DNA of 13,699 bases from a virus (Duplodnaviria > Heunggongvirae > Uroviricota > Caudoviricetes): the IMG/VR virus record IMGVR_UViG_2537561934_000011; one strand, 5' to 3'. Of the stretch, positions 7,432 to 13,088 are shown one piece after another. The position numbers were made by a program, and so were the translations under genes. The notes below the pieces were generated by a model. That model made no database searches. It saw only the letters and a list, made by a program, of their open reading frames with translations, and was not told the origin of the DNA. The first letter of the stretch is position 1; every line of letters begins with the position of its first letter.

Positions 7432-8880
7432 TTGCTCAACAAGTATAATGGAGTTCCCGTGGATACAGCAGAACATGATGGCAAATTTGCTTGGGCTAGT
7501 TTTTATGAGGCTTTTGCCAACGCGTTACTGACTTGGCGAAATCGTAGAGATGAATTAGTCAAAGGTATTCATCTAATTGCCTCAGGTGTGGAAGGAATGT
7601 CCCATCTGCAGGACAAATCTATTATGGGAGAGATCTTTCCCTTAAAAGACATTTGTCCGTTTACTACTATGGGCTTGTTCAATCGTAACTTGACCGACAG
7701 CAATCGCAAAATTATTGCTGCCAAGCTAGCGAATTTGTTGGGCGTGAACGAACCGATTCCTGACTCCTTTGCCGGAATCCCGCTGTTGAATAACCAAAAA
7801 TCTTGGTTCTTTGGTTATGAAAAGTCACGCGACCCTAATGACATTGAATGCTTGTGGGAAATGTTCTCGCAGGCAATGACCTTTGCGGATAACCAGAATA
7901 CTAACTCTGCAGACTTCACTGCCGCATATGACATTGCTTCTACAGTAATGAATGTCGGTTGGAATCTCACCATGGGGTTGTACTGGACCCGTCCTTGGTT
8001 CTACCCTACTTTAGATAGCCAGTCGCAGTATTACATTCAGACAGTGTTAAACATTAAGATCATTAAAAACGGGGCAAAAGGTCGCTGTAGTGGACAAAGT
8101 TACCTGAGTCTTATGCGGGCGCTGAACGAGGTCTTTACCCAACCAAACTATCCGGTTCATTCTTTCCCAGAACTTTCTTTATCAGCGTGGAATACAGATC
8201 TTAGCCAGTCTAAAGATGAGGTGGCAAATAGAACGTGGAAAGCCTCTTTACTGAATAAAATTAAGGCGTTATGCCTGAAAAAAAATGGCCCTTATTTCAC
8301 TGCTTCGGAGTTGGAAGAAAACTACTTGGACGTATTCAAGGTAGAGCATCCTGAGAGCAAAACAGTTACAAGCTCAATCTACTTTTATCTACAGAAACTA
8401 TGCAATGATGATGAGTTAAAGTCCCTTGAGTCCGGAAATTATGAATACCTGAATTTTGAGAAAAATGAATCCCAGACGATAACTGAGGAAACTGTCGAAG
8501 AGAGTGCGCCGTTGCCAAAACTCACTCACGTTCCTTATGACATCAGTCATCTGGTGCAGGATGGCTGTTTCTTGGAAGAGGCTAAGATCCAACTCACACT
8601 TCAGCGCCTGATCGACAAGAAAAACCTGATATTACAAGGACCACCCGGAACTGGAAAAACCTGGTTAGCGCGACGTCTGGCGTACTGCTTGATGGGAGAA
8701 AAAGCACCTGAGCGTATTAGCGCGGTGCAATTTCACCCGAACCTCTCTTACGAAGACTTTATTCGCGGCTGGCGTCCAGGTAAAGAAGGGCAATTGACGC
8801 TAATTGATGGACCTTTTGTAAATGCAATCAAAACTGCAGTCAATAATCCTACCTCGAAATATGTGGTGATAATTGAAGAG
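7432..8880 (+). pseudogene. mcrB: McrB-like AAA+ GTPase gene, 5' part (long N-terminal domain, Walker A), interrupted by IS1 at 8881
   Basis: Walker A GPPGTGKT (8638-8661), then ARRLAYCLMGEKAP..VQFHPN.SYEDFIRG and the start of Walker B (VVIIEE) before the IS1 end; this tracks the K-12 McrB GTPase domain as I recall it. The preceding roughly 370 residues are unrelated to the K-12 McrB N-terminal domain. Start is uncertain (TTG at 7432, or GTG at 7459 with GGAG upstream). Confidence 0.8.
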
Positions 8881-8895
8881 GGTAATGACTCTAAC

Positions 8896-9399
8896 TTATT
8901 GATAGTGTTTTATGTTCAGATAATGCCCGATGACTTTGTCATGCAGCTCCACCGATTTTGAGAACGACAGCGACTTCCGTCCCAGCCGTGCCAGGTGCTG
9001 CCTCAGATTCAGGTTATGCCGCTCAATGCGCTGCGTGTAATGTTTGCTGATTACGTGCAGCTTTCCCTTCAGGCGGGATTCATACAGCGGCCAGCCATCC
9101 GTCATCCATATCACCACGTCAAAGGGTGACAGCAGGCTCATAAGACGCCCCAGCGTCGCCATAGTGCGTTCACCGAATACGTGCGCAACAACCGTCTTCC
9201 GGAGCCTGTCATACGCGTAAAACAGCCAGCGCTGGCGCGATTTAGCCCCGACATAGCCCCACTGTTCGTCCATTTCCGCGCAGACGATGACGTCACTGCC
9301 CGGCTGTATGCGCGAGGTTACCGACTGCGGCCTGAGTTTTTTAAGTGACGTAAAATCGTGTTGAGGCCAACGCCCATAATGCGGGCAGTTGCCCGGCAT
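8896..9399 (-). CDS. insB: IS1 InsB reading frame (InsAB' transposase by -1 frameshift)
   Basis: Canonical IS1 InsB sequence ..[41 protein letters not shown].. Confidence 0.85.
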
Positions 9400-9593
9400 C
9401 CAACGCCATTCATGGCCATATCAATAATTTTCTGGTGCGTACCGGGTTGAGAAGCGGTGTAAGTGAACTGCAGTTGCCATGTTTTACGGCAGTGAGAGCA
9501 GAGATAGCGCTGATGTCCGGCAGTGCTTTTGCCGTTACGCACCACCCCGTCAGTAGCTGAACAGGAGGGACAGCTGATAGAAACAGAAGCCAC
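9318..9593 (-). CDS. insA: IS1 InsA, 91 aa
   Basis: [43 protein letters not shown].. matches canonical IS1 InsA as I recall it. Confidence 0.9.
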
Positions 9594-9648
9594 TGGAGCA
9601 CCTCAAAAACACCATCATACACTAAATCAGTAAGTTGGCAGCATCACC

Positions 9649-10191
9649 ATTGAAGAGATTAATCGTGGCAATCCGGCGCAAATCTTCGGTGAAACACTCA
9701 CGTTGATGGAAGCAGATAAACGCACGCCGACTGAGGCATTATCTCTTTCCTATCCTAAAAATGATGATGAAAAAATATACATTCCTGAGAATCTATATAT
9801 CATCGGTACGATGAATATTGCAGACCGCTCACTCGCACTACTTGACCTAGCGCTGCGCCGTCGTTTCGCGTTTATCGATCTAAAGCCAGCTTTTAATGAC
9901 GCGTGGAGAAACTGGGTAAATTATAATTACGCAATTGATTTTGACATGTTAGCATTCATCAAATCTCGACTGACGGTACTTAACGATATGCTGGCAAAAG
10001 ATGTTACCTTAGGACCACAGTTTTGTATCGGTCACAGCTATGTCACCCCAGCTATCGGCCAAAAAATCAACGATGCCCAGGCTTGGTATGAACAAGTCGT
10101 TGATACAGAGATCTGCCCTTTGCTCGCCGAATATTGGTTCGATGCTCCAAATAAAGTCGATGAAGCCAGAAAAGTGTTATTAGCAAAATGA
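9649..10191 (+). pseudogene. mcrB: McrB-like AAA+ GTPase gene, 3' part, in frame with the 5' part once IS1 and one repeat copy are removed
   Basis: Reads (IEE)INRGNPAQIFGETLTLMEADKRT..YIPENLYIIGTMNIADRSLALLDLALRRRFAFIDL.., corresponding to the K-12 McrB segment IIDEINRANLSKVFGEVMMLMEHDKRG..YIIGLMNTADRSLAVVDYALRRRFSFIDI as I recall it. Stop overlaps the mcrC-like start (ATGA at 10188-10191). Confidence 0.8.
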
Positions 10192-11309
10192 CGACAATAA
10201 CCGGGAGTGAGCAACATACAGCATCACGTATTCCCATGCGAAATATCTGGATGCTGATGCTGTACGCTTCAGATCTGTTTCGTCAGTTAGGGCGCAATCA
10301 GATCGCAGTAGAAGATAACCCAGCAGAAATCCCCGACCTGGTGGCGACAATCCTCCTTCATGAGATTACGCTGCGCCGACGTCGCAATTTAAATATGGGA
10401 TACCAAACTTGTCATGCGGCCCTGAACCGAGTGAGAGGGCGCATTGACATACTGTATACTGCCAGTCATCAACTACTGGAACGGGGACAGGTTGCCTGCC
10501 ATTTTCAAGACATAACCCTCAACACCCCCCGAAATCGCTATGTTCGCTGTGCGTTAGAACGTCTGGCCTCAATCATAGTGAAACCGTCTTTGGCGGCAGA
10601 TTGCCATTTTATGGCAATATCACTTCGCCGTGAGGGGATAAATGGAGGATATCCTGCCCCCCACGAATTACCCTCAGTGTGGCGTTTTGGACGCCATGAT
10701 GCCGCAGATAAACCGATGGTCGATGCCGCACGATTAGCTTTTGAACTGCTGATGCCGACCGAAGATCAAGGCCAATATCTTTTACCTGCGCCCTCAAATA
10801 ACCTTTACTGGATGAGAAGACTATTTGAAAAAGGTATCGCTGGCTTATATCGTGTACACCTTGCCAAAACAACTTGGCAGGTCTCTGCAGGGAAAGAGCT
10901 GAAATGGGCGTTGAGCGATCAAAGTGCAGGTAGTGCAGAGATTTTCCCGACAATGAAGTCAGACATTATTCTGGAACACAAGACTGCCCAGCGGCGTATT
11001 ATTATCGATACCAAATTTAATTCGATTCTGACAAAGGGTTGGCATCGGGAGCAATCACTACGTAATGGCTATATTTATCAGCTATATACCTACCTTAGAA
11101 CACAGGAGAACAAGACGGATCCGCTTTCGCTCAATGCCGCTGGTCTTCTACTTCATCCAGCTGTTGGCTATATGCTTAATGAGTATGTTGTCACTCAGGG
11201 ACATAAGATCCATTTTGCTACAGTAGATATGACGGTAGATGCTAAAGCAATTAAAAAACAATTGCTGGCAATAGCCCATGATTGTGCAGGAGTCGCGGTT
11301 GATGACTAA
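10188..11309 (+). CDS. mcrC: McrC-like subunit (PD-(D/E)xK nuclease partner of McrB), 373 aa
   Basis: Translationally coupled to the mcrB-like gene. Length and position fit McrC. Candidate catalytic motif SDIILEHK..RRIIIDTKF (D at 11007-11009, K at 11013-11015). Confidence 0.75.
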   Translation: MTTITGSEQHTASRIPMRNIWMLMLYASDLFRQLGRNQIAVEDNPAEIPDLVATILLHEITLRRRRNLNMGYQTCHAALNRVRGRIDILYTASHQLLERGQVACHFQDITLNTPRNRYVRCALERLASIIVKPSLAADCHFMAISLRREGINGGYPAPHELPSVWRFGRHDAADKPMVDAARLAFELLMPTEDQGQYLLPAPSNNLYWMRRLFEKGIAGLYRVHLAKTTWQVSAGKELKWALSDQSAGSAEIFPTMKSDIILEHKTAQRRIIIDTKFNSILTKGWHREQSLRNGYIYQLYTYLRTQENKTDPLSLNAAGLLLHPAVGYMLNEYVVTQGHKIHFATVDMTVDAKAIKKQLLAIAHDCAGVAVDD

Positions 11310-11819: not shown

Positions 11820-12010
11820 TGTATTGAGATGTTAATAAAATGTAGACTTGTAATTTGGATATAAATGGTAGAGAAAACCTTTCCCCAAAATAAAAACGAA
11901 CGTCAATGAAATCAAACGGTTGAATAAAGTTGATTTTGGCTAATAAAAAAACAATAAAATAATTTTTATCATTAAATATCAATGACTTGAACTTAATGTT
12001 TTTATATACT

Positions 12011-12172
12011 GTTACGCCACATGGGTTGGACCGAAGCCGCAGACCTGATTGTTAAAGGTATGGAAGGCGCAATCAATGCCAAGACCGTAACCTATGACTT
12101 CGAACGTCTGATGGAAGGCGCTAAACTGCTGAAATGTTCAGAATTTGGTGATGCGATCCTCAAGAACATGTA
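12011..12172 (+). pseudogene. icdC: Displaced original 3' end of icd (isocitrate dehydrogenase), marking the right prophage/host junction
   Basis: In-frame translation ..[57 protein letters not shown] matches the Icd C-terminus as I recall it. No upstream icd coding sequence; AT-rich prophage DNA precedes it. K-12 e14 has the same int .. pin, restriction gene, icdC, iraM, ycgX order. Confidence 0.8.
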
Positions 12173-12195
12173 ATCACTACATGTGTTTAATATTG

Positions 12196-12228
12196 CAACG
12201 GGCGTATAACACGCCCGTTGTTTTATTT
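12196..12228 (+). terminator. Intrinsic terminator of icd: 10-bp perfect stem, 5-nt loop, T-run
   Basis: caacgggcgt-ataac-acgcccgttg followed by ttttatttat, 25 bp after the icd stop codon. Confidence 0.6.
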
Positions 12229-12599: not shown

Positions 12600-13054
12600 T
12601 TGTTATGTCTTATCCCACGGTATTTAATATAGTTCATTTGGATGTTCATTTCTTTATTTTGCATATGAGTATATTACCCCTTCAAAAAATAAATTAATTA
12701 AAACGATTGCTTATATAAAACAAAATTTAAAGCAAGGAATCTCAATGGATGTTAAACAAAATGAGATTTAGAGAAAACAATAAATTATTCACTTCGTTTT
12801 AGATTTGTTTAGCTATAATGTTATACATTCAAATGACTGAACATCCTGTAATTAAAACATAGCCTTTATGCTACTTTGTGCCAATTTGCTAAACATTATG
12901 GTTGCCTTTTTATATAACGATAATAATGAATATAAGCATGACATGAGAATAAGGTTTCAATTTTTGAGTTATATAGGAAAGGTTTAACCTGTTCCTGGCT
13001 AAAATACATATAACTGGATGATGACTAAACCAAAACACATGTGCGTTAAGTATT

Positions 13055-13088
13055 GAAACGGGCGTATGGCACACCCGTTGTTTTTATA
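13055..13088 (+). terminator. Second, imperfect copy of the icd-terminator hairpin module (function uncertain)
   Basis: gaaacgggcgtatggcacacccgttg followed by tttttataaa. About 85 percent identical by eye to 12178-12230, with one stem mismatch. Confidence 0.3.

Follow-up and report, generated by a model that had tools for sequence, protein, structure and literature searches.

McrC of the Escherichia coli K-12 McrBC restriction system requires the ring formed by McrB, and the incompatibility of McrBC with cloned cytosine methylases is the reason why mcrBC-minus cloning hosts are in use. The insertion sequence IS1 is mobilized by InsAB′, a DDE transposase that is obtained by a −1 frameshift at an A6C motif, and the usual length of its target duplication is 9 bp. 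Two described loci resemble the one reported here: the prophage e14, which is located at icd and is well established as the carrier of McrA, a modification-dependent restriction gene (PMC4982283), and delta(mcrC-mrr)114::IS10, the mcrBC-minus allele of cloning hosts, in which a 24 kb deletion is replaced by IS10 in engineered K-12 (PMC4982283). In the present work, a stretch of 13,699 bp (IMG/VR record IMGVR_UViG_2537561934_000011; hereafter, the whole stretch is called the window) was analysed. It is a lambdoid prophage that integrated in icd and has since decayed, and it carries a modification-dependent (Type IV) restriction module of the McrBC type whose McrB-family GTPase gene is interrupted by a copy of IS1. 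The interruption very probably reflects one recent transposition event, in which an intact IS1 entered this gene, and no evidence contradicts the insertion itself.

Results

A complete IS1 with an intact target duplication in the mcrB-like gene

Members of the IS1 family are approximately 768 bp long and possess imperfect terminal inverted repeats of approximately 23 bp that start with GGTRATG. The element in the mcrB-like gene is a precise 768 bp unit in the minus orientation; its coordinates (8881–9648) had already been given in an earlier interpretation made from the letters alone (the sequence-only reading). It begins with GGTAATGACTCTAAC... at 8881 and terminates with ...GGCAGCATCACC at 9648, its right and left inverted repeats (IRR and IRL) occupy positions 8881–8903 and 9626–9648, respectively, and 17 of the 23 terminal bases are mutually complementary. 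Both transposase frames are open. The insA gene (9318–9593, minus strand) encodes 91 amino acids with a zinc ribbon and a helix-turn-helix (Pfam Zn_ribbon_InsA and HTH_Tnp_IS1), whereas the insB′ frame (8896–9399, minus strand) encodes 167 amino acids that match DDE_Tnp_IS1 at 6e-78 and differ from the common IS1A by the substitution R120H. The A6C site (AAAAAAC) of the programmed −1 frameshift leading to the InsAB′ transposase was found at 9336–9342 on the minus strand, corresponding to IS1 positions 307–313, and the IS1 transposase was matched by NCBIfam transpos_IS1. Length and ends, the insA/insB′ arrangement with AAAAAAC and a target duplication within the 8–9 bp range thus all identify 8881–9648 as a complete, IS1A-like member of the IS1 family, albeit a rare allele; its identity to annotated IS1A copies is 99.1%.

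The element is bordered on both sides by ATTGAAGAG. The left copy (8872–8880) comprises codons I472-E473-E474 of the interrupted gene and the right copy is located at 9649–9657; the direct repeat is exactly 9 bp long without extension in either direction, and the chance of a 9 bp match at two fixed positions is 4^-9, or about 4e-6. The right copy was found where the sequence-only reading had placed it, but the left one, given there as 8873–8881, had to be corrected, as base 8881 is the first G of IS1. The further claim of a simple insertion agrees with the exact IS1 ends, the intact 9 bp duplication and the collinearity of both flanks with the uninterrupted gene in 290 genomes. According to the mechanism of IS1 transposition, InsAB′ would have cut the two target strands 9 bp apart, and the duplication would have arisen when the gaps were filled.

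Excision restores a continuous McrB-family frame

In silico removal of the IS1 together with one repeat copy resulted in a sequence of 12,922 bp with one continuous open reading frame (ORF) containing ...KYVVIIEEINRGNPAQIFGETLTLMEADKRT..., as predicted earlier for the Walker B region. When the excised sequence was compared with the chromosome of E. coli WCHEC020031, 12,921 of the 12,922 bases were identical, the sole mismatch (window position 4668) being located within a ydaT-like gene. The restored ORF encodes a 651-amino-acid McrB-family protein, which is annotated in WCHEC020031 as ‘AAA family ATPase’ (WP_000379042.1) and is followed there by mcrC (WP_001425460.1).

The 5′ part of the gene (7459–8880, plus strand; GTG start according to RefSeq WP_000379042.1) consists of codons 1–474 and encodes two domains, the helical DUF8425 and a winged helix similar to DpnI_C, along with the motifs Walker A (GPPGTGKT) and Walker B (VVIIEE). 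From here the frame reads into IS1 for 26 codons and a stop (8881–8961, plus strand; stop codon at 8959–8961), yielding a truncated product of 500 amino acids with 474 native residues ending in ...VVIIEE and a tail of 26 IS1-coded residues, the length that the sequence-only reading had given. The 3′ part (9658–10191, plus strand) consists of codons 475–651 and the stop codon, and encodes INRGN..., the MNIADRS signature, the RRRF segment and the lid domain; gene callers report in it a 161-amino-acid fragment starting from the ATG at 9706. IS1 directly follows the codon for the catalytic glutamate of Walker B, which is aligned to E280 of K-12 McrB, and the duplicated bases ATT GAA GAG are the last three Walker B codons. 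The 500-amino-acid product therefore retains the DNA-reading N-terminal region and Walker A/B, and ends ahead of all downstream parts, among them the MNxxDRS signature, the RRRF segment and the lid.

Identity of the interrupted gene

The C-terminal ∼275 residues of the restored protein match the GTPase domain of K-12 McrB (PDB 6hz4, 6ut6 and 7vsr) with E-values from about 1e-77 to 4e-77. In the alignment, Walker A (GPPGTGKT) corresponds to GPPGVGKT of K-12 McrB and MNIADRS to MNTADRS, while the Walker B segment YVVIIEEINR lies opposite Y274-IFIIDEINR with its two glutamates opposite D279 and E280, so that the duplicated codons I-E-E align to I278-D279-E280. Across 36 homologues, with identities as low as 51%, residues V469, I472, E473, E474, I475 and N476 do not vary. 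The three motifs of the McrB family, namely Walker A GPPGxGKT, Walker B hhhh(D/E)E and MNxxDRS, were all aligned and invariant in homologues, and a McrC nuclease partner is encoded next to the gene. The NCBIfam profile NF008457 for the full-length K-12 McrB equivalog was not reached (265.5 versus a cut-off of 637 bits), as only the GTPase half matches. Judged by these alignments, the protein belongs to the McrB family without being the orthologue of the K-12 protein. The earlier designation of an mcrB-like target hit in its Walker B codons is hence supported by the match to the McrB structures, by a McrC partner scoring above its cut-off and by the I-E-E alignment. PADLOC gave only generic AAA matches for McrB and none for McrC.

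The mcrC gene and the expected consequences of the insertion

The mcrC gene (10188–11309, plus strand; RefSeq start at 10236) is an intact ORF of 373 amino acids with a conserved PD-(D/E)xK-type nuclease segment, and scores 355.6 bits against a cut-off of 338 for the NCBIfam McrC equivalog. Its product was aligned to residues 6–342 of K-12 McrC, with MKSDIIL...IIIDTKF opposite METDITI...LIVDAKY in the nuclease segment. The ATG of this ORF overlaps the mcrB stop codon (ATGA); the RefSeq start is situated 48 bp later and would remove the conserved residues I-P from the IPxRNI segment, which is aligned to K-12 McrC residues 6–7. As the alignment with K-12 McrC begins at residue 15 of the 373-amino-acid ORF, we infer that position 10188 is the likely start of mcrC in preference to 10236.

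The 500-amino-acid fragment would be unable to assemble an active GTPase ring or to hydrolyse GTP. Given such a fragment, and given the dependence of McrC on the McrB ring, the McrBC-type system is predicted to be switched off in the isolate bearing the IS1. Although itself intact, mcrC would in addition lose expression by IS1 polarity and by lost translational coupling, the latter because its ATG overlaps the mcrB stop codon, and expression of mcrC is thus probably reduced.

Distribution and age of the insertion

Junction queries requiring at least 80% coverage were run against 5,426 complete E. coli genomes, none of which contained the filled junction on either side, whereas the empty site was detected at ≥99% identity in 290. 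The module as such was found in 305 genomes, of which 289 hold at least 80% of it. The exact 500-amino-acid truncated product is on record in one contig only, AQEW01000007.1 of GCA_000354735.2, which is identical to the window across 12,241 bases and is evidently its source. Neither the two gene halves nor mcrC differ from the intact allele by a single base. Because substitutions are lacking in the gene halves and in mcrC, and because the junction is present in no complete E. coli genome, the insertion is recent, as had been proposed, and private to one sequenced isolate. Two genomes (H3 and H4) were considered as carriers of the same insertion and rejected, as their full-length match of 13,699 bp is coincidental and each has a 777 bp IS1 insertion elsewhere; the respective sites are the integrase gene (EC2341) and the iraM-ymgK spacer (Ec-U5). 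Literature searches returned no publication on this particular allele.

A rare IS1 allele

Among ∼75,000 IS1 places in the complete genomes, the closest was 99.1% identical to the mcrB copy, with seven mismatches, and the same result was obtained with PLSDB. Five of the differences are clustered at window positions 9028–9043 (IS1 606–621) and give rise to InsB R120H, and two further changes are private, one of them silent at 9426 (IS1 223) and the other at 8892 (IS1 757) inside IRR. The five-base cluster recurs in one independent ENA metagenome contig (L006, bases 421–450) and therefore represents a real but rare allele; a diagnostic IS1 31-mer was absent from 185,579 species-representative genomes. 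As the flanks differ by only one of 12,922 bases, the differences within IS1 have most plausibly not arisen in place but came with the donor copy. Quasi-palindrome templating was considered as an origin of the cluster at 9028–9043 and is not supported, since the local hairpin (−11.3 kcal/mol) is no more stable than that of the canonical IS1A (−13.5 kcal/mol).

The prophage and its second IS1

The prophage contains genes for a lambda-type integrase (1–1143), an excisionase, a DGQHR/DndB-like protein and an exonuclease, together with a truncated bet, a ydaT-like gene and an O-like replication gene of which the N-terminal part with its iterons is left, followed by an IS1 (the first copy in the order of the window, and the second IS1 of this study), a recombinase pseudogene, mcrBC, the duplicated icd 3′ end and iraM. 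The int, xis, exo, ydaT and O genes are thus located between icd and the icd 3′ duplicate. In strain ML35, the mcrBC module directly follows the tail-fibre genes and therefore represents phage cargo located at the attR end. The middle of the phage is deleted in the lineage of the window.

The second IS1 (5665–6432, plus strand) is a different allele, 91% identical to the mcrB copy, and has no target duplication, its flanks being AACTAACAA on the left (5656–5664) and AACAATTCT on the right (6433–6441). It truncates the lambda-O-like replication gene just past the iterons and adjoins the recombinase pseudogene at a deletion joint, and resembles a scar left when the prophage middle was lost through an IS1-mediated deletion. 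Genomes with an empty mcrB site already have this copy at the identical position; it is thus older than, and unrelated to, the insertion in mcrB. Beside the joint, an iteron-like array of four to five repeats (TTACCYGAATCRGGTAA, partly palindromic) that resembles a lambda-type origin was observed at 5532–5648 in the O-like gene.

Further features of the window were recorded. A 43-nucleotide repeat containing a hairpin occurs twice (12182–12224 and 13042–13084), with 84% identity and a core of AACGGGCGT...ACGCCCGTT followed by a T run; the first repeat is positioned directly after the duplicated icd 3′ end (∼12006–12173), and the two may be terminators or att-associated remnants. The early region encodes a stand-alone DGQHR/DndB-like protein (2168–3232, minus strand), which matches TIGR03187 at 1e-55, under the DndB equivalog cut-off, and no other dnd or dpd genes were found in the window. 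Lastly, a bet remnant (4061–4342, minus strand) adjoins a transcriptional-regulator remnant (4342–4485, plus strand) at position 4342, an internal deletion joint that is common to relatives.

The N-terminal region of the McrB-like protein

Over its N-terminal 370 residues, the protein is unrelated to K-12 McrB. Precomputed Pfam assignments indicated DUF8425 and McrB_lid in the protein, and the AlphaFold model of residues 1–339 (window 7459–8475; mean pLDDT 86.7) showed a helical domain with a winged helix C-terminal to it. In structure and profile comparisons alike, the winged helix is matched best by the C-terminal domain of DpnI, which binds methylated DNA: the family profile matches DpnI residues 194–256 with an E-value of 2e-5 and one homologue matches Pfam DpnI_C at 5.9e-12, the E. 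coli protein itself being below the Pfam threshold. Sequence identity to the DpnI winged helix (PDB 4esj) is only 16–23%. As E. coli is Dam+, Gm6ATC is unlikely to be the target of the McrB-like protein. A structure search with the DUF8425 helical domain found no convincing match among solved structures; OGG1 and others, with a probability of only 0.1–0.16, were not accepted.

Proteins combining DUF8425, this type of winged helix and a McrB GTPase with McrC form a large, widespread family with thousands of matches across phyla, for which we found no experimental characterization here. Longer homologues (∼800 amino acids) have an extra N-terminal domain of ∼150 amino acids, which is missing in the protein of the window.

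Discussion

Several observations weigh against the view that the module was silenced by an intact IS1 in one recent transposition. An identical donor IS1 was found neither in the complete E. coli genomes nor among the PLSDB plasmids. The assembly is a draft, and the internal IS1 sequence with its seven differences could thus be partly a consensus of several copies. Both the loss of restriction and the polarity on mcrC are predictions, the latter drawn from the classical literature on IS1. In a consensus scan for an outward IS1 promoter directed toward the 3′ fragment and mcrC, nine sites were obtained versus 8.3 in shuffled sequence, and some residual expression of mcrC may persist.

With respect to the cause of the insertion, the knockout might have been positively selected, for instance when an acquired plasmid or phage methyltransferase makes the modification that the system attacks, or when loss of the system admits modified foreign DNA, the IS1 allele having risen accordingly. 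Such selection would fit three independent insertions of IS elements in the same gene among ∼305 carriers, none having been seen in mcrC: besides the IS1 described here, FCI55 (L003, 2699–5990) has an IS2 insertion ∼85 bp downstream of the IS1 site and ML35 (L008, 1560–4851) an IS3-family insertion ∼190 bp downstream of it. Moreover, mcrB has been lost from further genomes (H207, H208/H209 and H210) by deletions that have no fewer than three separate end-points, and ∼16 genomes retain truncated remnants of the module only. These disruption counts are, however, small and raw, with phylogeny not accounted for, and in ∼289 of the 305 carriers a single stretch still covers ≥80% of the module; among the matches listed at 100% coverage, which do not include FCI55, the module is a single piece except in ML35. 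IS elements have also hit neighbouring neutral DNA of relatives, as exemplified by the above-mentioned IS1 insertions in the integrase gene of EC2341 and in the iraM-ymgK spacer of Ec-U5, and by ISKpn26 in S115. Furthermore, the IS1 allele is confined to a single isolate with no sign of spread, and neither a methylase nor any other trigger is visible within the window. Neutral decay is a sufficient explanation because the locus is cargo of a decaying prophage, and since this prophage is already full of IS and deletion scars, the insertion needs no selective explanation. Selection for loss, as the sequence-only reading had tentatively proposed, is therefore possible but speculative and not required, and we regard it as unlikely.

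A more far-reaching idea, and one that we consider quite improbable, is that the module may be a distinct class of McrBC, in which DUF8425 and the DpnI-like reader would recognize a modification other than that of K-12 McrBC, and that the repeated IS knockouts of its GTPase gene would bear witness to selection against this barrier upon the acquisition of modified plasmids or phages.

That the IS1 is an artefact of the draft assembly, a repeat misplaced by the assembler, is very improbable. The whole-genome shotgun origin of the draft and the absence of an identical IS1 from the complete genomes and PLSDB would be compatible with a chimeric consensus, but assemblers do not create a 9 bp target duplication abutting exact IS1 termini, both junctions are contained within one 478 kb contig, and the unusual five-base cluster is independently present in the ENA contig. 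Finally, the inverted orientation of the two IS1 copies, which are 2,448 bp apart, and the lack of a target duplication at the first of them could suggest a composite element or the mark of an inversion or rearrangement, but this explanation has practically nothing left to it, as the IS1 in mcrB has its own intact target duplication, whose two copies an inversion between the IS1 copies would have separated, the sequence on either side of it runs collinear with the uninterrupted locus of the 290 genomes, and the other IS1 copy, only 91% identical, is already in place in empty-site genomes.

Simple transposition into the mcrB-like gene thus stands as the preferred explanation, and the event is an ordinary insertional inactivation by IS1, of which both the mechanism and the kind are textbook. 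The isolate should be scored as being without the prophage-borne McrBC-like restriction that its close relatives keep, and its uptake of modified DNA could change slightly; beyond strain-level annotation the event has little significance. The intact allele of the WCHEC020031 type and the IS1-disrupted allele nevertheless constitute a natural isogenic-like pair, a possible control for what the system restricts.

Compared with the classical polar IS1 mutations in gal and lac, the insertion in the mcrB-like gene shares the 768 bp length, the imperfect 23 bp repeats, insA/insB′ with the A6C motif, the 9 bp duplication and the disruption of a gene, and differs in its new target gene and in its rare allele, which is characterized by InsB R120H and the IRR change and has a best match of 99.1%. 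With K-12 McrBC (6hz4 and 6ut6), the module has in common the GTPase domain, Walker A/B, MNxADRS and a mcrC gene immediately downstream. In contrast to K-12, its N-terminal reader is an unrelated combination of DUF8425 and a DpnI_C-like winged helix, its Walker B carries EE instead of DE, and its locus is prophage cargo at icd and not the immigration control region. The e14 prophage is likewise lambdoid, resides in icd, where the 3′ end of the gene is duplicated, and carries modification-dependent restriction cargo; however, its phage backbone differs, and its cargo is the HNH protein McrA, whereas the prophage described here carries a two-gene McrBC-type module. With delta(mcrC-mrr)114::IS10, finally, the locus shares an IS-associated loss of McrBC, which in the present case results from a simple insertion in a natural isolate.

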